DNA of 64,000 bases, from the IMG/VR virus record IMGVR_UViG_3300021400_000932, one strand, 5' to 3'. Origin of the DNA: a virus. Its lineage: Duplodnaviria > Heunggongvirae > Uroviricota > Caudoviricetes. Below the pieces are notes generated by a model. The model worked only from the letters and a program-made list of their open reading frames with translations. It searched no databases and was not told the DNA's origin. Below are positions 1 to 9,198 of this stretch, piece after piece (the first letter of the stretch is position 1; every line of letters begins with the position of its first letter). The position numbers and the translations under genes were made by a program.

Positions 1-174
1 AACTGTTATATGGATTAGAATAGCTGCTGACAGGGTTGCTGTCATACTCTTCTTCAGAAAGCATTTCAGCAAAAGCTGCATCTAATGCATGAATGGTTGT
101 ACCCATATCTCTATTAGAAGATTGCATATCTAAATCATTGATGTCCATTTGTAACCTCATTGTAATTTACAGAT

Positions 175-251
175 TGGCTCCGAGGGTGGGACTCGAACCC
201 ACGACCCCATGATTAACAGTCATGTGCTACTACCAACTGAGCTACCTCGGA
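175..251 (-). tRNA. tRNA-Asn (anticodon GTT)
   Basis: Reverse complement folds as a cloverleaf: acceptor TCCGAGG/CCTCGGA, T-arm GTGGGTTCGAGTCCCAC, anticodon loop CTGTTAA, 3' CCA encoded. Confidence 0.85.
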
Positions 252-506
252 ATAAAAGTTGCAGGGAATAGGCTAACATCACCCTACTATGTGGACTCTA
301 ACCCTCTTATCTCCACTTCGGACAAACACCATTCCATATGCCCTTATGTTCTGGTACTATTCCTTGTCATCGGTTTATAGTTTCCCTCCTCAACGGGCGA
401 GGTGTCCGGCGCTCTCTGCAGGTCGTTGCTCACCTTTTGGGAACTGCACTTCCCTCACTACTTCGTGCAGAAAGTAGATGGCAAAGTACACTTATTTTGT
501 GTACTG

Positions 507-582
507 TGGCGATTCCAGCGGGGTTCGAACCCGCGACCTCTAGCGTGACAGGCTAGCGTTCTAACCAACTGAACTATGGAAC
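507..582 (-). tRNA. tRNA-Asp (anticodon GTC)
   Basis: Reverse complement GGTTCCATAGTTCAGTTGGTTAGAACG...CTGTCAC...GGTTCGAACCCCGC...GCCA; anticodon loop CTGTCAC; closely resembles bacterial tRNA-Asp. Confidence 0.85.
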
Positions 583-588
583 CGTATG

Positions 589-674
589 TGGTGCCGGTGG
601 TGGGACTTGAACCCACATGCTTATTCAGCAACAGATTTTGAGTCTGCCGTGTCTGCCAATTCCACCACACCGAC
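589..674 (-). tRNA. tRNA-Leu (anticodon CAA), type II with long variable arm
   Basis: Reverse complement has acceptor GTCGGTG/CACCGGC, anticodon stem-loop GCAGA-CTCAAAA-TCTGT, long variable arm, T-arm GTGGGTTCAAGTCCCAC, CCA encoded. Confidence 0.8.
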
Positions 675-679
675 ACATA

Positions 680-1381
680 TTATGAATATCTCTTATCCTT
701 GTCTTCTGCACTCCGGAAGATGAACTTCCGGTAATCCTCATAGTCTGAGAACTGAATGTACTCACCGGTGCGAACATCAAAGCAATTTGAATTTCTGCAA
801 AATTCATAGCTGTTTGCACTGACTACGATATAAATATCGCAAGATTCCCTCTGTTTGAAATCCTCAATAATGACATCGAACAAATCAGTTTTGACACTAT
901 CAATATTATCTACAGACAATCCACTATCGAGGGCATCCAGCAGCACCCAAATCTCCTTGCGGTTATTCGCATACTTACGAACAAATGCACCGATTTTCCT
1001 TGCTGTGTTGCCGAGATTCGTTACAATCTGTTCACCCTCAGAACTCTGTATCAATGTCGCAAGAAGACTCCAATCATCATGCCATCCAGCGGAATTCTTT
1101 GCTCTGTCGCCACCCTCACGGAGATTGTCGTAATGAAGAACAGCAACATCGGAATCTTGTTTTAAGATATCCTCTATGAGATTGAGAAATGTTGTCTTTC
1201 CAGAACCATTACACCCAACCAATACTGTGATTCCGCTTTTAATTACTACATCAGATTTCATATAAATCTTTCCGGAATCACCGCATTCATAAGGATTAGT
1301 AGGTATTTTGAATTTGTGCATATGTTCGCCTCCAGTTATGATGCCTAGGGTGTCGGGTATATGTGTGGTATAACCCGACAT
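680..1381 (-). CDS. P-loop NTPase, ABC/AAA_21-like minimal ATPase (likely start at internal Met MHKFKI)
   Basis: Walker A VLVGCNGSGKTTF preceded by an SMC/RecF-like N-terminal strand; Walker B IWVLLDALDSGL; no ABC signature motif; sits between tRNA genes. Confidence 0.6.
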   Translation of the reverse strand: MSGYTTHIPDTLGIITGGEHMHKFKIPTNPYECGDSGKIYMKSDVVIKSGITVLVGCNGSGKTTFLNLIEDILKQDSDVAVLHYDNLREGGDRAKNSAGWHDDWSLLATLIQSSEGEQIVTNLGNTARKIGAFVRKYANNRKEIWVLLDALDSGLSVDNIDSVKTDLFDVIIEDFKQRESCDIYIVVSANSYEFCRNSNCFDVRTGEYIQFSDYEDYRKFIFRSAEDKDKRYS

Positions 1382-1496
1382 TCTATGAATTCAATAACCA
1401 CACCTGAGTATTCATAGATGATGGTTTCAAAAAATTAAGGAGATTCATGAAAACCATTATTGAGTGTAGTGAAAAAAGTGTAAAAACCTACACCCA

Positions 1497-1593
1497 TGGT
1501 GGCGAGGGCAGGATTCGAACCTACGTTACCTGAGCTACATATCGTACTACTGTACTAAGCAATCAGTGTCTTAGACCACTTGACCAACCCGCC
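1497..1593 (-). tRNA. tRNA-like gene (type II-like, 97 nt) with non-canonical anticodon arm; identity undetermined, possibly pseudo-tRNA
   Basis: Reverse complement GGCGGGTTGGTCAAGTGG...GTAGGTTCGAATCCTGC CCTCGCC A CCA has good acceptor, D and T arms and an encoded CCA. No 5-bp anticodon stem with a 7-nt loop and U33/R37 can be drawn in the CTGATTGCTTAGTACAG region. Confidence 0.45.
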
Positions 1594-1710
1594 ATTTATA
1601 AATCAATAGGCTGTTCCTCTAACCCCATTTAACTACAGCACTTTGGACGCCTCGAAGTGTCAAACTTCTTCCATTATGCGATTTTCGTAGCACCCATCAA
1701 TTTTAATTTG

Positions 1711-2016
1711 TTATAAGAAATTCCTGCTCATAAAAAATTTCATAAAGCGTTCTTTAACCCTTCGGAACTTGTAAGAAATTCCCTTTGTAGAAATTACTTC
1801 GATTCCCATATTCCCATCCGGAAGTTTTGTGTTTCGAAATTCAAGAGAATCAATAGCATATCCGTATTCTGGTTCATCTATTGAGGTTTCTCCGGTTATA
1901 TGGAATCTCGATGAACCATCCTCATTAACCTTCGTGAATTCCAGCTCAATGAAGTATTCCTCATAGGAGTTATAAAGCCAGATGATGTCGCCTTGTTTTA
2001 ATTCTGATACTTTCAT
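1711..2016 (-). CDS. hypothetical protein
   Basis: 101-aa ORF in co-directional minus-strand array; no recognisable motif. Confidence 0.45.
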   Translation of the reverse strand: MKVSELKQGDIIWLYNSYEEYFIELEFTKVNEDGSSRFHITGETSIDEPEYGYAIDSLEFRNTKLPDGNMGIEVISTKGISYKFRRVKERFMKFFMSRNFL

Positions 2017-2025
2017 ATTGACCCC

Positions 2026-2241
2026 TTAATTATATTCAGTATCACAAAATTTGCAGATATGTCCATGTAATGGAGCTCCACAATTCTTGCAATTTGTGGG
2101 ATGATGTGGATGTTCATTTTCTATTGTGATTGGAACATCAGCTATTTGAGAATACCCATCTGCATTCCGGAGATATAAACCATCATTGCAACAACAGTAC
2201 AGTTGCGCCGATACAAACGACCAATCATTCATAACTTCCAC
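2026..2241 (-). CDS. zinc-ribbon protein (paralog of C-terminus of 15813..16151)
   Basis: C-terminal CKNCGAPLHGHICKFCDTEYN is nearly identical to CKNCGAPLHSNRCEFCDTEYD in ORF 15813..16151. Confidence 0.6.
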   Translation of the reverse strand: MEVMNDWSFVSAQLYCCCNDGLYLRNADGYSQIADVPITIENEHPHHPTNCKNCGAPLHGHICKFCDTEYN

Positions 2242-2252
2242 CTCACATCAAA

Positions 2253-2528
2253 TCAGGACATATGGTCTTCAACAAAAGATACCAAATCTGCCACTGTTCT
2301 GCATTCGCAAAATTCTGACAAAGCGGGTTCATTAATAGAGAATTTGAACATATCCTCTATATCAATAGCCAAGTCCACAGCATCAAGGGAATCAAGACCG
2401 AGGTCCCCACGAAGTTCGGTATCTAAAATTATCTCAGATTTATCTGTGTCTGATTGCTGAGATACCATGTTTCGTACAATTTCAAATACTTCTGACATTT
2501 GAACCTCCATGGCATATAACGATTTCAT
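2253..2528 (-). CDS. acpP: acyl carrier protein homolog (probable start at internal Met MSEVFEI)
   Basis: Phosphopantetheine-attachment motif LGLDSLDAVDL (DSL serine) in a small acidic ~80-aa protein, matching the bacterial ACP LGADSLD motif. Confidence 0.7.
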   Translation of the reverse strand: MKSLYAMEVQMSEVFEIVRNMVSQQSDTDKSEIILDTELRGDLGLDSLDAVDLAIDIEDMFKFSINEPALSEFCECRTVADLVSFVEDHMS

Positions 2529-2538
2529 TATACATATT

Positions 2539-2615
2539 TGGAGCAGATAAGGGGACTCGAACCCCCACTACCAACTTGGAAGGATGGTGTGCTAACCGTT
2601 GAACACTATATCTGC
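2539..2615 (-). tRNA. tRNA-Gly (anticodon TCC)
   Basis: Reverse complement GCAGATA...CCTTCCAAG anticodon loop (as in bacterial tRNA-Gly UCC), T-loop GGTTCGAGTCC, discriminator U, CCA encoded. Confidence 0.8.
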
Positions 2616-2634
2616 ATATTTGTAACTAAAAAAC

Positions 2635-3039
2635 TTAGTAGTTAAAAATTTGTCCATCTTCCGGTAGACCGGCAAATTCTGGACCCAGTTCATATGGGAA
2701 ACCATCGACATAAATGATATCGGCATCTTCATCATATGGATAAGTCTTGTTCACAGCATCACGAATAGAAGAATTGCTCTTGGCAATTTCCCGCGACCGC
2801 TTTTCAGTTGCGAAACTACGTGCAGCATTGACTAGCGAAAACATATCCGCATTAGAATAATATTTGCATTCGCAGTCCTTTTCATGATACGGAATCTTCT
2901 TCACACCAGAAAATACTAAAGTATTGATTCCACCTAATATATTCTGAATACTTGTTTCATCTGCATCGAATGCATGAAGAATATTATCAGAAAGTGCTAC
3001 GAAGATTGTATCACGCATCAACTTCATCCCTTTCATCAT
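2635..3039 (-). CDS. hypothetical protein
   Basis: 134-aa ORF between tRNA-Gly and tRNA-Leu; no clear motif. Confidence 0.45.
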   Translation of the reverse strand: MMKGMKLMRDTIFVALSDNILHAFDADETSIQNILGGINTLVFSGVKKIPYHEKDCECKYYSNADMFSLVNAARSFATEKRSREIAKSNSSIRDAVNKTYPYDEDADIIYVDGFPYELGPEFAGLPEDGQIFNY

Positions 3040-3189
3040 ATTCCTTCCGAACTAAATCATATCTATCTGCGGCTGACAACCTGTACCAATCATCTTTAAT
3101 ATCCAGAAAAGAAAAAACGGTAAGATTGTGTTCGGACAACAAATCGCAAAATTGTTCTTTATCCATATTTAACCTCAGAAATAAAAGTG

Positions 3190-3270
3190 TGGTGCGCCTG
3201 ACAGGACTCGAACCTGCACCCTTGCGGACTAGAGCCTAAATCTAGCGTGTATGCTTTCCACCACAGGCGC
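3190..3270 (-). tRNA. tRNA-Leu (anticodon TAG), type II
   Basis: Acceptor GCGCCTG/CAGGCGC, anticodon stem-loop CTAGA-TTTAGGC-TCTAG, variable arm, T-arm GCAGGTTCGAGTCCTGT, CCA encoded; D-loop lacks the GG dinucleotide. Confidence 0.7.
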
Positions 3271-3279
3271 ACATCTTAT

Positions 3280-3477
3280 TTATCCAATATCTCTATCATA
3301 AGTAGTTTTATCACAGTTCGGACATTTCATATAAGTGAAAAATTCTACGCACGGCGGAGAAATGTGGAGCTCAGCATCACTTCTATTCGCATACCACTCA
3401 CACCCACAATGTTTGCAAGTAAAATGAAACTCACCGGTCTTAGACTTGGTTACATCCCCCGATTTGACGATATTCAT
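3280..3477 (-). CDS. small zinc-ribbon protein
   Basis: CKHCGC...C...CPNC; two CxxC pairs in 65 aa. Confidence 0.5.
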   Translation of the reverse strand: MNIVKSGDVTKSKTGEFHFTCKHCGCEWYANRSDAELHISPPCVEFFTYMKCPNCDKTTYDRDIG

Positions 3478-3980
3478 AACAACTAACCTCGCTGTTCACC
3501 TAAGCATAAAGTTGTGCCGGATATTCCCCGCTCTATTCTCCGACTCCACCCCAATACACGCATTTGCCCATATCTGTGTCTTTACTGTCGTTTTTGTCGG
3601 ACAGGGTGGTATGTTTGTCAACTCAATACTTAGGATAGTCCCAAATTGCGTAGGCTTTATTGGCTTTGCATATTGGGCAGTATTTCGTACCATTTCACAT
3701 AGCACTTATCAGAGAGATTACTGTAGTTCCTCTCCATAAGATTTCAGCGCAGCACCTGCCCCTCCAGATGCCGAGTTTTATCCGTAACAAAACCAGACCT
3801 ATGTATTGAATTGACATTCTCTATCCACCACGCCGTACGCACATCATATAGCCCTCGGCGTAGCAGTCTGTGACCCCTCAAAGAGACGTGAGGTGCTTTC
3901 TTTGGCGGATTAGCTCGCCCCCGCCGGTCAGACATCGCCCTTTCATGCTTTGCCATCCTATAGTAAACCGACTTAGGTTT

Positions 3981-4056
3981 TGGTGTGCCGAGAGGGATTC
4001 GAACCCACGACCTGCGGATTAAAAGTCCGCTACTCTTCCGGCTGAGTTATCGGCAC
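3981..4056 (-). tRNA. tRNA-Lys (anticodon TTT)
   Basis: Acceptor GTGCCGA/TCGGCAC, anticodon stem-loop GCGGA-CTTTTAA-TCCGC, T-loop GGTTCGAATCC, CCA encoded. Confidence 0.85.
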
Positions 4057-4313
4057 ATAGATGTGAGGTTGGTAGTCATCCTTTTACTGCTGAGGGGGAC
4101 CCCACAACTCCCGTTTTCGAATGGGTCCGCACGGAGATTCCAAAAGGTGCGGATTTCGAAGTAGCTACTCTCCAGCTACAAGAAGAACGGTTTTACCAAA
4201 GGACTCACAACGCGATGTGAAAATCCTACCGACCGATAAGGGGATGATTTCTCGTTTACCATCCTAACGCCATCTTTTCGGCGACTAACCCAGGGCAGGT
4301 ATATGTTTCCCTT

Positions 4314-4400
4314 TGGTGCAAGTGAAGGGAATTGAACCCTTAATCCCAACAGGGCATGGGATTTTAAGTCCCACTTGTATGCCAGTTCCAACACACTTGC
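4314..4400 (-). tRNA. tRNA-Leu (anticodon TAA), type II
   Basis: Acceptor GCAAGTG/CACTTGC, anticodon TGGGA-CTTAAAA-TCCCA, variable arm CCC-TGTT-GGG, T-arm AAGGGTTCAATTCCCTT, CCA encoded. Confidence 0.85.
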
Positions 4401-4414
4401 ATATAATACTCGGG

Positions 4415-4717
4415 TTATCCGAACTGCATTACATCGGTAACCCAAGATGTTGGTATGTTCTTAGAATATCCGAAAGCCTTACATTGAAAGAATTCGTAAC
4501 TATGGTCGAAAGTTTCTTTCACAAACTTCAGTTCGGTTTCCGGAATATCTATTTCGAAGACAACTATATCTTCATGGAAAGTCCTCACTCTAGCGAATTT
4601 AAGCGCATTGTCCATCGAATCCGCAAGATATACTATGCCATCACAACCGGTTCGGATTACTTCATCCTGAACTATCGAAATGGCATTAGTACATCCCGTA
4701 GCATGATAATATTTCAT
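4415..4717 (-). CDS. hypothetical protein
   Basis: 100-aa ORF with AGGTGA ribosome-binding site and AATCGTTAT motif upstream; no confident domain. Confidence 0.5.
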   Translation of the reverse strand: MKYYHATGCTNAISIVQDEVIRTGCDGIVYLADSMDNALKFARVRTFHEDIVVFEIDIPETELKFVKETFDHSYEFFQCKAFGYSKNIPTSWVTDVMQFG

Positions 4718-4793
4718 ATCATATCACCTACTATATAACATAACGATTGTAAAATCAATATTTTTGATGAATTTTTATTTCGATGTGTAGCGA

Positions 4794-5252
4794 TTAAGAT
4801 TTGGCTTTTGAATCATGAGAGAACTGGACAGCCACATTGTCGGGATTATAAACCCAAACTTTGTGGACATGTAATTCAGATTCAACATCAATCACAGCAT
4901 TTCTTACACCGTAACCAAGAGACTTGGAAGAAATTTTATTCTTGAACCACTCAATGATGCGGTCAGCCTCAACTTCGTCCATATCCCTCAGACTTCCGAA
5001 AATACTGACGGTGTAGGAATCAACGCTATTCTTTACCGGATTCACCCAAACACTCATTGTAAGACTTCCCTCGGAACCCATAGGGAGATAGTTTTCTGGA
5101 TGGTTATATGCATCCTCGAAATCCCCATGTTCCCAAGAGCATTCCTTACCGAAACTCTTCTCAAACATTTCTTTTGCTTCTTCGACAGAAACCTGATTGC
5201 GCCGAATATCATCAATACGGGCAATCGCTGCAACTTGTAACCACTGACTCAT
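4794..5252 (-). CDS. hypothetical protein
   Basis: 152-aa ORF in minus-strand array. Confidence 0.5.
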   Translation of the reverse strand: MSQWLQVAAIARIDDIRRNQVSVEEAKEMFEKSFGKECSWEHGDFEDAYNHPENYLPMGSEGSLTMSVWVNPVKNSVDSYTVSIFGSLRDMDEVEADRIIEWFKNKISSKSLGYGVRNAVIDVESELHVHKVWVYNPDNVAVQFSHDSKAKS

Positions 5253-5269
5253 AATATAACCTCCTTGTA

Positions 5270-5665
5270 TTACTCTTGATTGAAAAACGTATCTAACTTG
5301 TCTGCTATCGTCGGCCAGAAGCCTTTGATGTACTGCTTATACCCATCCGAAGTTTCCTTGAACTCGCCTTTACGTATCTTATCAAAATCAGACTTCCACA
5401 TCTCCGGAACATTGAAAAGATATATGCCATATGTGTTATCATCTTCGTAATCATAGGTACTAACGAAATTCGGGTCTTCGTAAAGGACTTCCTCACCGAA
5501 TCCACAATTTCGGTTATTACCGCCGACACGTGTAAAGATAGCGATTTTATCATCCTCAACAAAACAATCGCGGAATCTCGGATATTCTGATTCTCTACGA
5601 CCAAGCAAAGGCATGATAAGTATGCAAGCAGGATTAAACCCATTAACCATATTGTACAGACTCAT
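5270..5665 (-). CDS. hypothetical protein
   Basis: 131-aa ORF; AATCGTTAT motif and GGAAAGGTGG ribosome-binding site upstream. Confidence 0.5.
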   Translation of the reverse strand: MSLYNMVNGFNPACILIMPLLGRRESEYPRFRDCFVEDDKIAIFTRVGGNNRNCGFGEEVLYEDPNFVSTYDYEDDNTYGIYLFNVPEMWKSDFDKIRKGEFKETSDGYKQYIKGFWPTIADKLDTFFNQE

Positions 5666-5780
5666 AGATTGACCACCTTTCCTATCTTTCTAATACACAT
5701 AACGATTCCATCATTAAAAATGTCAACAAAAATAGAACCCCACCGCAAGCGATGAGGTTCTATTGAAATTTTTGTGCAAA

Positions 5781-6407
5781 TTATGCAGAAATTTCGTCTG
5801 CGGTAAGCGGAATTACGCGCGAAATGACGAATGGCACAGAAACTGTCAGGATGGCCCCTCCGGCCTGGTCCCCTGGACCTCTGTTCAAAGCACCAATCCA
5901 AGTACCAGGACAACGGAGACCATGACGCAGATTACCTTGTCCATCATAGCGAAGGAAGTAAACCTGCTTCATATACTCTGTAGGTAATCCCATTCTTTCG
6001 GTTGCAGGGTCATACACCTGACGTCTCCACTCTTCGAGAGCTCCGAGAACATTAGGCTCACAGAAGCAGTTAAGAGTCCAAGTGACATCATCGAAGTTGA
6101 CCTTAGACGGGAATTTGATTAGACCATTACCGTAGTGTACTGTGATGATATCTTCACTCTCTGAGATATCACCGATTTCTGCGGTAGACAGGGTTAATAG
6201 GTCGGAATTTTCTGTCGGGCTGGAACCATCCATGTTGTAGATTCTTACCTCAAAGTTGTTAGTGGTCAGAGGTACATAGTTATCTACACCCAACATATGG
6301 TTTGTACGTTTGTGTTTAGCGGAATTTCGCAAGGATTCCGTTGTTGTAGCTCTCCGGAAACTACCTTTTACCTTTCGATAAAAGACCAGACTATTTGTTA
6401 ATCTCAT
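5781..6407 (-). CDS. hypothetical protein (first gene of a long minus-strand operon)
   Basis: 208-aa ORF starting at the divergent intergenic region 6408-6840. Confidence 0.5.
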   Translation of the reverse strand: MRLTNSLVFYRKVKGSFRRATTTESLRNSAKHKRTNHMLGVDNYVPLTTNNFEVRIYNMDGSSPTENSDLLTLSTAEIGDISESEDIITVHYGNGLIKFPSKVNFDDVTWTLNCFCEPNVLGALEEWRRQVYDPATERMGLPTEYMKQVYFLRYDGQGNLRHGLRCPGTWIGALNRGPGDQAGGAILTVSVPFVISRVIPLTADEISA

Positions 6408-6757
6408 TATATTTTGAGATTGTGGATTTTTCGCTCACCCATTGGCTTGGCAGCTAACTCCCCCTCAAGGGGATAGTCGTTGAACGTATTTCATATTGGA
6501 TATATTACCCAACTTAGAAATTTCGCTGCTAAACGTCCCATTGTTACATCTCTTACTTTTTAATCTATCACGATTACTATTTCTAGTTTCGTTGTAGCAA
6601 AGAGCTCTTAGGAACTTCAAAGCAATTAACACACAGCACATATGTATCACTACATATGTGGGGCATCATCCACCCATGTACAGCGGAGAAAACATATATT
6701 TTATCTCACCTTTCTATAATATTTTTGAGTTTTTGATTGACTCATTGATATTATAGG

Positions 6758-6786
6758 TTGCACTTTTTATGTTTTTATGATATAAT
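6758..6786 (+). promoter_or_regulatory. sigma-A/sigma-70-like promoter (TTGCAC-17nt-TATAAT)
   Basis: TTGCAC at 6758-6763, exactly 17 nt of spacer, TATAAT at 6781-6786; ~50 nt upstream of ATG 6841 with an A/G-rich ribosome-binding site. Confidence 0.55.
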
Positions 6787-7024
6787 TAGTACATAGGCAC
6801 AAATCACTTGAAAGGATTGGTAAGCTACGGAAAAAAGAAAATGTAAATTCTGCGGAAAAGAATTCTTACCCAAGTCTAATTTCCAGAAATACTGCAAAGG
6901 TCCGCATATCCGGATTTGTCCTGTTTGCGGAAAAGAGTACGAGGAAACCAATTCGGATAATCTGAAACGACCACCGCATGCTTGTTCCTATGCTTGCAGA
7001 GCAAAGAAAACCAGACAAACGAGT

Positions 7025-8530
7025 ATGGAAAGATATGGATGTGTTGCCCCTGGAAATAACATAGCAGCTAGAAAGAAAGCGAAAGCTACTATGCAAGAAC
7101 GATTTGGTGTTGACTATGCTATGCAATCGGAAACTGTCAGAAAGAAATCTGTTGCCACCAATATAAAAAAGTATGGTGTCGAAAACCCCCAACAAAATGA
7201 AACAATCAAACAAAAAACCGCAGAAACAAATCAGGAACGGTATGGGGGCACCGGTTTTCAATCAGAAGAGTTGCTAAATAAGTATAAAGATACAATGATT
7301 GATATATATGGTGTTACTTCCCCCATTCAAAACCAACAGATTCGACAGGATATTATGAATACTATGCAAGACAGACATGGCGCTTCATGGTTCTCTCAGA
7401 GTGAAGAATATAAAGATAAATGTCATACTACTTCATTATCTAAATATGGTGCGGAACACTGGATGCAAACAGATGAGTGTAAGCAGAAATGCAAAGATAC
7501 TTGGCTGCGGAATTATGGCGTTGATAATCCATCGAAATCTCCGCTAGTAATCGCCAAGATAAAGCAGACATTTATTGATAAGTATGGGACAGATGGACTA
7601 TTGAATGTAGCTGAAATCCGAGAGAAGATACAGAAGACTTGCATTGAAAGATATGGTGTTCCCTATGGGGTATTGACACCACAAGCACGAAAACACAATG
7701 GTGCTATATCGAAGCAAAACAAACAAGTAATGAAATTATTAGATGATGCCGGTTTGAGCTATCAGTCAGAATTCAATCTTGAAAATAAATCATTTGACAT
7801 CAAAATTTTATATTCCAATATACTTATTGAGATTGACCCATCATACACACATTCAATAGAACTAACTCACTGGAATACCTCTGTTTCAGATACATACCAT
7901 ATAGAAAAGACTATGTTGGCAAACAAACATGGATATCAATGTTACCATATCTTCGATTGGGACGATAGGAAAAAATTTGTCAAATCTCTAACTAAGAAAA
8001 AAGATATAGAAACAGACCAATATTATATATCTGAAGTAGATGAATTGACTGCAACTGAATTTTATTATAAATATTCCATCTATATGCCGGATACCAAGTA
8101 TGCAATCCATATTGGAATATTCAACAAGCGGAATAATGCACTACTGCAAGTATCGTCATTCAGATTCATAGATATTTCTAACTGTCGGTGGCTGCTTTGT
8201 GCTAACAGCATCAAATTCCAAATTAATGTTATAGATGGACTGCATAATATCATAGACCACTTTGTTAAATACTATGACCCTGCTGAAATTGTCGGATTAT
8301 GTGATATAGCAAAATCAAATGGGATGATGTTTGAATCAATAGGGTTCAAAGAACTTTCAGAAGAACCACCACGTTTGATTTGGAGTCGATATCGGTCAGC
8401 AATTTCTAATGACAATGTAAAAAGTCAAACCAAATTGAATGATGAACAAATATACTCTATGATGATAAACAATAAATATCTGCCTGTATATGACTGTGGA
8501 TACAAAGTATATTCATTGAAACTCCGGTAA
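7025..8530 (+). CDS. repeat-containing putative site-specific/homing endonuclease: tandem ~30-aa K..(K/R)YGV.NP.Q repeats plus C-terminal PD-(D/E)xK-like (DUF559/Vsr-type) domain; N-terminal Zn-finger module probably starts at 6841
   Basis: At least eight repeats (QERFGVDYAMQSE, KKYGVENPQQNE, QERYGGTGFQSEE, IDIYGVTSP, SKYGAEHWMQ, RNYGVDNPSKSP, DKYGTDGLLN, ERYGVPYGV). The C-terminal FDIKILYSNILIEIDPSYTH resembles a DUF559 nuclease core. The in-frame upstream sequence 6842-7024 encodes CKFCGKEF...CPVCGKEY and has no start codon. Confidence 0.75.
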   Translation: MERYGCVAPGNNIAARKKAKATMQERFGVDYAMQSETVRKKSVATNIKKYGVENPQQNETIKQKTAETNQERYGGTGFQSEELLNKYKDTMIDIYGVTSPIQNQQIRQDIMNTMQDRHGASWFSQSEEYKDKCHTTSLSKYGAEHWMQTDECKQKCKDTWLRNYGVDNPSKSPLVIAKIKQTFIDKYGTDGLLNVAEIREKIQKTCIERYGVPYGVLTPQARKHNGAISKQNKQVMKLLDDAGLSYQSEFNLENKSFDIKILYSNILIEIDPSYTHSIELTHWNTSVSDTYHIEKTMLANKHGYQCYHIFDWDDRKKFVKSLTKKKDIETDQYYISEVDELTATEFYYKYSIYMPDTKYAIHIGIFNKRNNALLQVSSFRFIDISNCRWLLCANSIKFQINVIDGLHNIIDHFVKYYDPAEIVGLCDIAKSNGMMFESIGFKELSEEPPRLIWSRYRSAISNDNVKSQTKLNDEQIYSMMINNKYLPVYDCGYKVYSLKLR

Positions 8531-8539
8531 ACAAAAATA

Positions 8540-8578
8540 AGGCACACCCAACCAAGCAACAAGGGTGTGCCTTTTTTG
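8540..8578 (+). terminator. rho-independent terminator (GGCACACCC...GGGTGTGCC + T6)
   Basis: 9-bp GC-rich stem with 13-nt loop followed by TTTTTT, immediately after the stop of the plus-strand gene. Confidence 0.7.
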
Positions 8579-8585
8579 TATAGGA

Positions 8586-8831
8586 TTAATTAATGACCAA
8601 GCAAAGCGTTCCAGAACCGTCTTCGGAAGGAGAAAATACCGTATAGGAATAAGGCGTGTAGTCGAATGCATCATAGGTTTCTTTCTTTTCTTTAATCATA
8701 AGCATAGGTTCTATGCCGGAAATACCTTGATAGCCACTTTTCTCCATATCTGACTGATAGCTAATGATGGGAGTATCATCCGGCAAATCTTTAATTGCTT
8801 CTTTTAGATGTCTTACGGTACGTACTATCAT
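8586..8831 (-). CDS. hypothetical protein
   Basis: 81-aa ORF. Confidence 0.4.
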   Translation of the reverse strand: MIVRTVRHLKEAIKDLPDDTPIISYQSDMEKSGYQGISGIEPMLMIKEKKETYDAFDYTPYSYTVFSPSEDGSGTLCLVIN

Positions 8832-8847
8832 AATGGACCCCCTTCAA

Positions 8848-9198
8848 CTAAGGTTTTTCTTTTGCAACTTTTCTTTGTCGCCGGTAATCATAGAGAGCAT
8901 CAATCAGCTTCTTCTGGTCAGCGGTAGGGATATCTTTCTTTGCGATAATACCTCTGTCTGCATAAGTAAGAAGAGTTCTGCGAACAGATTCATACTTAGC
9001 ATAGGCCTCACAGTAAATATCTCTGGCTTCGTTCAGTTTCACAATTAGCTGATTGAGTTCTTCGATTTTCTGCTTTGCATTCTCAGTCGCCTTGCCATTA
9101 TCGGGGCTTACATTAGAAGAACCGCAGTATGGACAAAACTTCGGCTTGTTTGCAAATCGAAATCGCTTATTGCAGTCAGAACAGATAAATTGTTTCAT
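8848..9198 (-). CDS. zinc-ribbon / coiled-coil protein
   Basis: N-terminal CSDCNKRF...CPYCGS; AATCGTTTAT motif and GAGGTGA ribosome-binding site upstream. Confidence 0.55.
   Translation of the reverse strand: MKQFICSDCNKRFRFANKPKFCPYCGSSNVSPDNGKATENAKQKIEELNQLIVKLNEARDIYCEAYAKYESVRRTLLTYADRGIIAKKDIPTADQKKLIDALYDYRRQRKVAKEKP

Follow-up and report, generated by a model that had tools for sequence, protein, structure and literature searches.

A large rumen phage encodes a candidate structured non-coding RNA in its tRNA array

What does a phage encode in a gap of its tRNA island where no convincing gene can be called? The question is raised by a block of 503 nucleotides (nt), at positions 3478 to 3980, in a virus of the class Caudoviricetes (IMG/VR record IMGVR_UViG_3300021400_000932). 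The block is located between an open reading frame (ORF) for a zinc-ribbon protein and a gene for tRNA-Lys(UUU) in a track of minus-strand genes, and the surrounding island contains 8 transfer RNA (tRNA) genes. All positions refer to the stretch of 64,000 nt that was analyzed, which we refer to as the window. In our judgment it is likely that the minus strand from 3980 to 3514 is the gene for a non-coding RNA of about 467 nt that is highly structured and has not been catalogued, here called RNA-A, in the tRNA array of a myovirus-like rumen phage of about 193 kilobases (kb). It is best read as a new family of tRNA-array-embedded phage RNA, which would resemble the GOLLD and ROOL RNAs in placement and scale and would belong to neither.

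An earlier note, made from the sequence of the window alone, had placed a GC-rich non-coding block at this site, and its position between the zinc-ribbon ORF and tRNA-Lys proved to be right. The block had a guanine-cytosine (GC) content of 47.1%, the window as a whole one of 39.4%, and a value as high as that of the block was reached in only 2.9% of all segments of 503 nt. The GC maximum of the 64 kb at this segment length was located at 3825 to 4327, which comprises the 5′ part of the block, tRNA-Lys and the next gap, and the GC-rich non-coding character extended past tRNA-Lys into a second structured block at 4057 to 4313. Stop codons were present in each of the 6 frames. An arginine-rich ORF of 70 amino acids, initiated with ATG at 3744 to 3956 on the minus strand, had been dismissed in the earlier note as an apparent translation of RNA, and this assessment was borne out: the ORF had no match in Pfam, and its counterparts in homologous loci ranged from 31 to 77 codons through frameshifts and stops. 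Insertions and deletions in RNA-A were of 1, 2 and 4 nt, that is, not multiples of three. A recoded or alternative-code gene was rejected on the grounds of this indel pattern and of the non-conserved frames.

The window was identical to part of a 193-kb scaffold from a rumen metagenome in ENA (L002/L011; homologous loci are given L numbers here). Because it encodes a DNA polymerase, a tail sheath, a portal, a UvsX-like recombinase and a tail-tube protein, the virus was taken to be a large myovirus-like phage. Relatives were gathered by exact-protein look-ups of the flanking genes and their homologs, by one pattern scan at the Joint Genome Institute (JGI), and by nhmmer on all contigs obtained. 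This resulted in 9 distinct versions of RNA-A, in the window, L006, L015, L001, L005, L017, L019, L035 to L037 and L069, along with a 5′-truncated copy in L004. The source was the rumen wherever the sample label states one. A tRNA-Lys(UUU) was located immediately upstream of every full-length homolog; it adjoined RNA-A in L001, L015, L017, L019 and L069, and its 3′ end preceded RNA-A in L006, L005 and L035 to L037.

Conservation of RNA-A started at 3980, the first base beyond the CCA encoded with tRNA-Lys, and stopped just past the last helix, H18 (about 3514). The extent given in the earlier note was therefore right for about 3980 to 3514 and wrong for the last 35 nt or so (3478 to 3513), which were not conserved in L017, L019 and L035. 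Within these ends, RNA-A is, on the aligned sequences, more conserved than the adjoining tRNA-Lys, with identities of 91% versus 78% in L001, 83% versus 62% in L017, and 89% to 93% versus 81% in L019. A cluster of tRNA pseudogenes was rejected, the region being more conserved than a real tRNA. The earlier note had named a lack of conservation and a conserved protein-coding frame as the observations that would speak against a structured RNA; what was found instead is a region more conserved than the adjacent tRNA and no frame that is conserved among the homologs.

A model of 18 helices and 119 pairs was derived with RNAalifold, with the last hairpin corrected by hand; the 9 distinct versions were aligned in A5 and A7, the latter with L069. 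In this model 97.6% of the cells were paired. Altogether 13 pairs had changed on both sides, compared with 5.3±1.6 in column shuffles (0 of 500 reached 13) and with 1 to 4 in a slid control in which the partners were moved by 1 to 3 columns. The covarying sites were found in H1, H3, the variable hairpin H5/H6, the long-range helix H7, H12, H15 and H18, and a further compensatory change in H7 (GUCAA/UUGAC to GCCAA/UUGGC) was seen in L069. An all-against-all covariation screen of 8 sequences was too noisy for use. G·U pairs accounted for 16% of the paired cells, and with the plus strand taken as the RNA, pairing would drop to only 82% of the cells, which argues that selection acts on the minus-strand transcript. 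By comparative folding with its relatives, RNA-A is thus a genuine, structurally constrained non-coding RNA on the minus strand, as the earlier note had proposed.

The coordinates of the modules of the predicted fold and of the neighboring features are collected in table 1. Compensatory changes were seen in several parts of the fold. In the 5′ core, a C-G pair of H1 was replaced by U-A in L035 and an A-U pair of H3 by G-C. The pairing of pseudoknot PK1 was possible in all sequences, with the terminal U-A replaced by G-C in L017 and with a G·U pair in L069. The hairpin H5/H6 was shorter in L017 and L069 and had a different sequence in L019, and it paired in every case. In the 3′ domain, a C-G pair of H15 was replaced by U-A in L017, and a G-C pair of H18 by A-U in L017 and L019.

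Table 1. Positions in the window of RNA-A, its predicted modules and the neighboring features of the tRNA island
Feature	Positions	Strand	Description
RNA-A	3514-3980	minus	Predicted conserved structured non-coding RNA of about 467 nt, from the base after the CCA of tRNA-Lys to just past H18
5′ core, H1-H4	3876-3977	minus	H1 encloses H2, followed by hairpins H3 and H4; most widely retained module
Self-complementary hexamer CUAUAG	3958-3963	minus	In the junction inside H1
PK1, 5′ strand	3882-3886	minus	UCUCU in the loop of H4; pairs with 3818-3822
Variable hairpin H5/H6	3825-3866	minus	6 pairs changed on both sides
PK1, 3′ strand	3818-3822	minus	AGAGA; pairs with the loop of H4
Central domain	3617-3815	minus	Multi-stem junction H8-H14, closed by H7 of 13 base pairs (3803-3815 paired with 3617-3629)
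3′ domain	3516-3609	minus	H15 encloses H16 and H17; then hairpin H18 with a conserved loop of 17 nt
Spacer and ribosome-binding site GAGG of the zinc-ribbon gene	3478-3513	minus	Outside the conserved RNA
Zinc-ribbon ORF	3280-3477	minus	65 amino acids; downstream of RNA-A, context only
tRNA-Leu(UAG)	3190-3270	minus	ARAGORN; directly after RNA-A in L019 and L069
tRNA-Lys(UUU)	3981-4056	minus	With encoded CCA; complete; ARAGORN, Rfam 69 bits
RNA-B	4057-4313	minus	Second predicted conserved structured non-coding RNA, between tRNA-Leu(UAA) and tRNA-Lys
tRNA-Leu(UAA)	4314-4400	minus	Upstream neighbor of RNA-B; ARAGORN, Rfam

Natural variants differed in which of these modules they contained. The copy in L069 (5229 to 5440) is a deletion form of 212 nt that consists of H1 to H7 only and is located directly between 2 tRNAs; its 5′ core scored 129 bits, its H7 closes only about 25 nt, compared with about 170 nt in the full form, and the 3′ domain is absent. 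The copy in L004 (100 to 537) lacks the first 85 nt or so and also the upstream tRNA-Lys, and L035 to L037 have no 3′ arm of H18. Such variants show RNA-A to be of modular construction, with a retained 5′ core, pseudoknot and H7, to which the central junction and the 3′ domain are add-ons.

Beyond tRNA-Lys, the next gap has comparable properties. RNA-B ranged from 213 to 257 nt across lineages, with a lineage-specific insertion, and was modeled with 9 helices, including an invariant closing helix of 11 base pairs; 94.4% of the cells were paired, and 11 pairs had changed on both sides, compared with 5.0±1.5 in shuffles (0 of 500) and 0 to 3 in slid controls. No match to RNA-B was found in Rfam. 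It is found along with tRNA-Lys and RNA-A in the window group and in L001, L005, L019, L035 and L069, and is absent upstream of tRNA-Lys in L017. Since RNAduplex gave meaningless full-length duplexes of RNA-B with RNA-A, a k-mer test was used instead, and no complementary 7-mer between the 2 RNAs was found to be conserved.

The options listed in the earlier note for the identity of the block were an RNase P-like, a tmRNA-like, an intron-like or a novel element. Scans of 3400 to 4420 with Rfam 15 in evalue mode detected tRNAs only, and those of 1 to 9000 detected tRNAs, a group I intron at 6366 to 6681 and noise, at a cut-off that is multiplied over families, so that very weak similarity to Rfam families would go unreported. 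The models were confirmed to work in this mode on a ROOL locus (NC_007930.1, 130.4 bits) and on the GOLLD RNAs of the phages phiCbK (165.3 bits) and PegLeg (216.4 bits). Only results obtained in evalue mode were used, because the ROOL control (NC_007930.1, 177800 to 179300) was missed in gathering mode, in which the score required is 99.1; negatives of that mode are for this reason unreliable for long families. At E≤10 there was no match in either interval to ROOL (RF03087, gathering score 99.1 bits), to GOLLD (RF02032, gathering score 150 bits), or to the bacterial, archaeal and type-T models of ribonuclease P (RNase P). No transfer-messenger RNA (tmRNA) was detected in the window by ARAGORN, and none of the tmRNA or permuted-tmRNA models of Rfam, which worked on control loci, gave a match. 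No intron was found in 3478 to 3980 by the same scans that detected the group I intron; RNA-A lies between genes rather than within one, and the flanking tRNA-Lys is complete (69 bits). RNA-A was not recognized as ROOL, GOLLD, RNase P, tmRNA or an intron by the test that defines each, which leaves the novel element as the option that gained support.

Searches for further copies outlined a single narrow clade of phages. Matches in a blastn search of 50,697 GenBank phages were confined to tRNA genes, and a search of IMG/VR with the 2 flanking small proteins gave no relatives. The 4 scans of IMG/VR with DNA patterns from different conserved blocks returned either 0 matches or chance matches only, and L019 was the only genuine one of 15 matches in the JGI metagenome scan. 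Two pattern scans of the GTDB representative genomes returned 0 and then 4 chance matches, including one in a Prevotella metagenome-assembled genome that was rejected by nhmmer. In 23 IMG/VR phages related by their tail-tube protein (64% to 78% identity), neither nhmmer nor the covariance model matched RNA-A; 7 of the 23 had no tRNA within ±10 kb, and synteny is therefore not kept in these phages.

The layout of the homologous loci also bears on how RNA-A would be produced. In L019 and L069, RNA-A was located directly between tRNA-Lys and tRNA-Leu(UAG), with a spacer of 8 to 12 nt and no ORF, and homologs of the zinc-ribbon gene were present in L014, L016, L033 and L034, which lack RNA-A. RNA-A is therefore not the leader of that gene, and the comparison of loci shows that the 2 are independent of each other. 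The sole terminator-like site on the minus strand was located upstream of the island, at 5764 to 5731, where a strong hairpin of 15 pairs and a T-run lie right after the tail-tube gene and are followed by TTGACA. This hairpin probably marks the start of a transcription unit that contains the small ORFs and the tRNA/RNA island. From 5731 to the island end the minus strand showed no terminator-like site, and because of this we infer that RNA-A would be made as part of a polycistronic transcript of the tRNA array. Its 5′ end could be formed by cleavage after the CCA of tRNA-Lys by the tRNA-processing machinery, and its 3′ end by RNase P cleavage at the next tRNA; release by tRNA-processing enzymes is suggested by the tRNA-RNA-tRNA layout of L019 and L069. 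Once released, RNA-A may be a stable folded RNA that acts in trans in the course of infection, and it would share the niche of GOLLD and ROOL, which are phage RNAs linked to tRNA arrays that form RNA-only homo-oligomers and have no known function.

Other explanations of the block were weighed against a new RNA family. RNA-A could be a highly divergent ROOL or GOLLD; for GOLLD, RNA-B would correspond to the variable 5′ region, tRNA-Lys to the linker and RNA-A to the conserved 3′ region. The context is the same, since both classes are found in phage tRNA arrays, ROOL comes from the rumen, and the linker of GOLLD at times contains tRNAs (PMC5737381, PMC12286853). The size is similar too, with 414 to 487 nt covered by the GOLLD model compared with about 467 nt, and RNA-B and RNA-A flank tRNA-Lys in most lineages. 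However, there was no match at E≤10 in a mode that scores real members at 130 to 216 bits, and 6 conserved motifs of RNA-A had 0 occurrences in the searchable parts of the alignments published for ROOL and GOLLD. When 497 kb that included ROOL and GOLLD loci and the 23 related IMG/VR phages was scanned with a covariance model of the 5′ core (R1), known copies only were recovered. Furthermore, RNA-B has its own closing helix and shares no conserved complementary 7-mer with RNA-A, which in L017 is present without RNA-B directly upstream. We regard membership in either class as quite unlikely. The possibility that RNA-A acts together with tRNA-Lys(UUU) against host defenses that cleave tRNA-Lys, as a decoy or sponge for anticodon nucleases or as a chaperone or processing scaffold for the tRNA, is marginally easier to entertain, and we would still call it unlikely. 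Anticodon nucleases such as PrrC do cleave tRNA-Lys, and every full-length copy directly follows tRNA-Lys(UUU), but this linkage could be simple synteny, L004 contains the 3′ two-thirds of RNA-A without a tRNA-Lys, and there was no tRNA-like or anticodon-loop mimic in RNA-A, where the tRNA model matched the annotated tRNAs only.

The remaining alternatives appear less probable still. Long, nearly invariant stretches in otherwise diverged contigs, and module boundaries in L004 and L069 that resemble recombination joints, are what might be expected of a DNA-level element, such as a replication origin, a packaging site or a recombination hotspot, or of recent horizontal spread. Yet the compensatory changes and the wobble pairs speak for RNA: many G·U pairs would turn into A·C mismatches if the opposite strand were read (hence the 97.6% versus 82% noted above), strand-specific wobble pairing is not selected by DNA elements, and the variable hairpin keeps its pairing despite changes in sequence and length. 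An explanation at the level of DNA is thus very improbable. Hardly more can be said for a long cis-acting 5′ leader, a riboswitch or attenuator of the zinc-ribbon gene, even though RNA-A ends about 35 nt before its start codon on the same strand with no terminator between them, and 11 contigs carry both; apart from the loci described above, in which RNA-A and the gene occur without each other, conservation ends ahead of the ribosome-binding site. A small protein, be it the 70-amino-acid ORF or its conserved first 30 codons or so, is scarcely credible. The first 27 codons or so of this ATG-initiated ORF do translate similarly in all homologs, but nearly all amino acid differences are non-synonymous (H/S, A/V, RR/QQ, G/E, P/L) and coincide with covariation of paired bases, and the sole AGG abuts the ATG, leaving no usable Shine-Dalgarno spacing. 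A guide RNA of TnpB or IscB was rejected, the sole TnpB gene seen being about 6 kb away in one relative and on the other strand. That gene (L001 1-58, ERZ914832 scaffold_11) is TnpB-like (OrfB_IS605 / Cas12f-like TNB), lies upstream of the tRNA island, and is absent from the version of the locus in the window.

One short element of the fold may be relevant to how the RNA assembles. The hexamer in the junction inside H1 is CUAUAG in 5 lineages, CUGCAG in L015, CCAUGG in L035 to L037 and CUGUAG in L001 and L005. Every version is self-complementary, CUGUAG through G·U pairs, so that it is not a palindrome at the level of DNA. Among 260 variable hexamer windows of the alignment, the one at 3958 to 3963 was the only one to be self-complementary in all sequences, and 2 independent double substitutions keep the palindrome, which is the pattern expected of an RNA-RNA self-contact. 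This is a hint that RNA-A might dimerize by pairing with itself through the hexamer. A more far-reaching proposal is that self-assembling "ornate" phage RNAs have a third class, which evolved independently of the others, and that RNA-A, possibly together with RNA-B and tRNA-Lys, represents this class, homo-oligomerizes through the hexamer, serves the tRNA- or translation-linked role of GOLLD and ROOL, and has the 212-nt form as its minimal functional core; we put this forward tentatively, as an idea that is possible and on balance doubtful.

Several observations weigh against the interpretation of RNA-A as a new family of structured RNA. The 9 versions, all from rumen metagenomes and mostly 85% to 93% identical, are a small set, and 75 of the 119 pairs never vary and hence carry no information on covariation. 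Related sequences may outdo the shuffle control even if they have no structure, and the slid control therefore weighs more; the single-sequence fold was only modestly better than shuffles (z=−2.4). Not every module can be indispensable, because the 5′ core is missing from L004 and the 3′ arm of H18 from L035 to L037. The expression, ends and stability of the RNA are features that we infer, and the functional analogy to GOLLD and ROOL draws on context and size only. For the hexamer there is a rival partner within the molecule (columns 24 to 27 with 164 to 167 of A5), with a C-G pair gained in L015, although in L035 this pairing contains a C·A mismatch, and it also overlaps a strand of the pseudoknot.

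Other features of the window were noted in passing. The group I intron at 6366 to 6681 (minus strand, 64 bits in Rfam) is located at the 5′ side of the tail-tube ORF (5781 to 6407, minus strand), the first 37 residues or so of which resemble read-through of intron sequence, and the tail-tube gene thus appears to be interrupted by an intron. An ORF of 501 amino acids that resembles a homing endonuclease (DUF7487) is located near the intron on the opposite strand (7025 to 8530, plus). Within the island, a third ORF-free gap of 255 nt with a GC content of about 48% was identified between tRNA-Asp and tRNA-Asn (252 to 506, minus strand), and is covered only by loci identical to the window. The tRNA call at 1497 to 1593 (minus strand) is unusually long, with 97 nt, and scored low in Rfam (36.9 bits); it was called tRNA-Lys(CUU) in the window and in L069 (7002 to 7098), and tRNA-Leu(UAG) in L001 (7358 to 7454), and may carry an insertion or intron. 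The tRNA genes are also accompanied by an ORF for a protein that resembles acyl carrier proteins (2253 to 2528, minus strand), annotated with PF00550 (PP-binding) in the identical locus L002, which is unusual cargo for a tRNA island.

To our knowledge, it is very rare for a non-coding RNA of bacteria or phages to exceed 400 nt and to have an intricate conserved fold; OLE, GOLLD, ROOL and HEARO are the few examples. Large ornate RNAs have repeatedly revealed unexpected biochemistry, most recently in the form of RNA-only cages. An unrelated RNA in the niche of GOLLD and ROOL would offer an independent comparison for the classes linked to tRNA arrays. If phages have indeed converged on large folded RNAs in their tRNA arrays, the shared features would show what the niche requires, namely joint processing with tRNAs, a core to which modules are added, and self-association. 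RNA-A also offers several handles for experiments, namely its constant position directly 3′ of tRNA-Lys(UUU), its structured companion RNA-B, a natural form of 212 nt and a candidate site of self-pairing; the 212-nt form would lend itself to structure determination and to genetics.

The non-tRNA RNAs of phage T4 provide a parallel to an RNA of this kind. T4 species 1 and 2 (RNA C and D) are stable RNAs with no known function that are encoded in the tRNA gene cluster of the phage and mature from the transcripts of these tRNA genes. RNA-A resembles them as a non-tRNA RNA encoded among phage tRNA genes, although they are far smaller than about 467 nt. A sequence relation was not seen in the blastn search of GenBank phages, which matched tRNA genes only and was the one homology test made for the T4 RNAs. 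For the hexamer, the parallels are the palindromic dimerization loops exemplified by the dimerization initiation site (DIS) of HIV-1 and the self-pairing contacts of OLE, ROOL and GOLLD, with which it shares a palindrome maintained through paired substitutions. In contrast to these elements, the hexamer of RNA-A is placed in a junction rather than in a demonstrated hairpin loop, has a rival partner within the molecule, and is only a putative dimerization site.

A close comparison is with ROOL, a large ornate RNA that was first found in cow rumen metagenomes and occurs in phages and prophages, often beside tRNA genes; it has multi-stem junctions and pseudoknots, no known protein partner, and forms a homo-oligomeric cage (PMC5737381, PMC12286853). 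RNA-A is likewise encoded in a rumen phage beside tRNA genes, with predicted multi-stem junctions and a pseudoknot, and its location is ROOL-like, with tRNA-Lys and tRNA-Leu on its 2 sides and with genes for a DNA polymerase, tail sheath, portal and tail tube in the same phage. Compared with the ROOL consensus of 6 multi-stem junctions and 3 pseudoknots, the model of RNA-A has 18 helices, at least 3 junctions and one supported pseudoknot at few variable positions, and no helix-by-helix correspondence between the 2 was found. The RNAs also differ in length (about 467 nt versus an average of 581 nt) and in their conserved motifs, and ROOL has few highly conserved nucleotides, whereas RNA-A is nearly invariant over long stretches. 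GOLLD, in turn, is found in phage tRNA arrays; its 3′ region is conserved and its 5′ region variable, sometimes with tRNAs in the linker (PMC12286853). In our phage controls the Rfam model covered 414 to 487 nt of GOLLD, and the tRNA-Gly of phiCbK was located inside its GOLLD match. No further class of large phage RNA linked to tRNA arrays was found described in the literature, of which our coverage was incomplete. RNA-B, tRNA-Lys and RNA-A give the same outward layout as the 5′ part, linker tRNA and 3′ part of GOLLD, but RNA-B is modeled as a self-contained fold, no conserved pairing to RNA-A was found, and in L017 it is absent upstream of tRNA-Lys.

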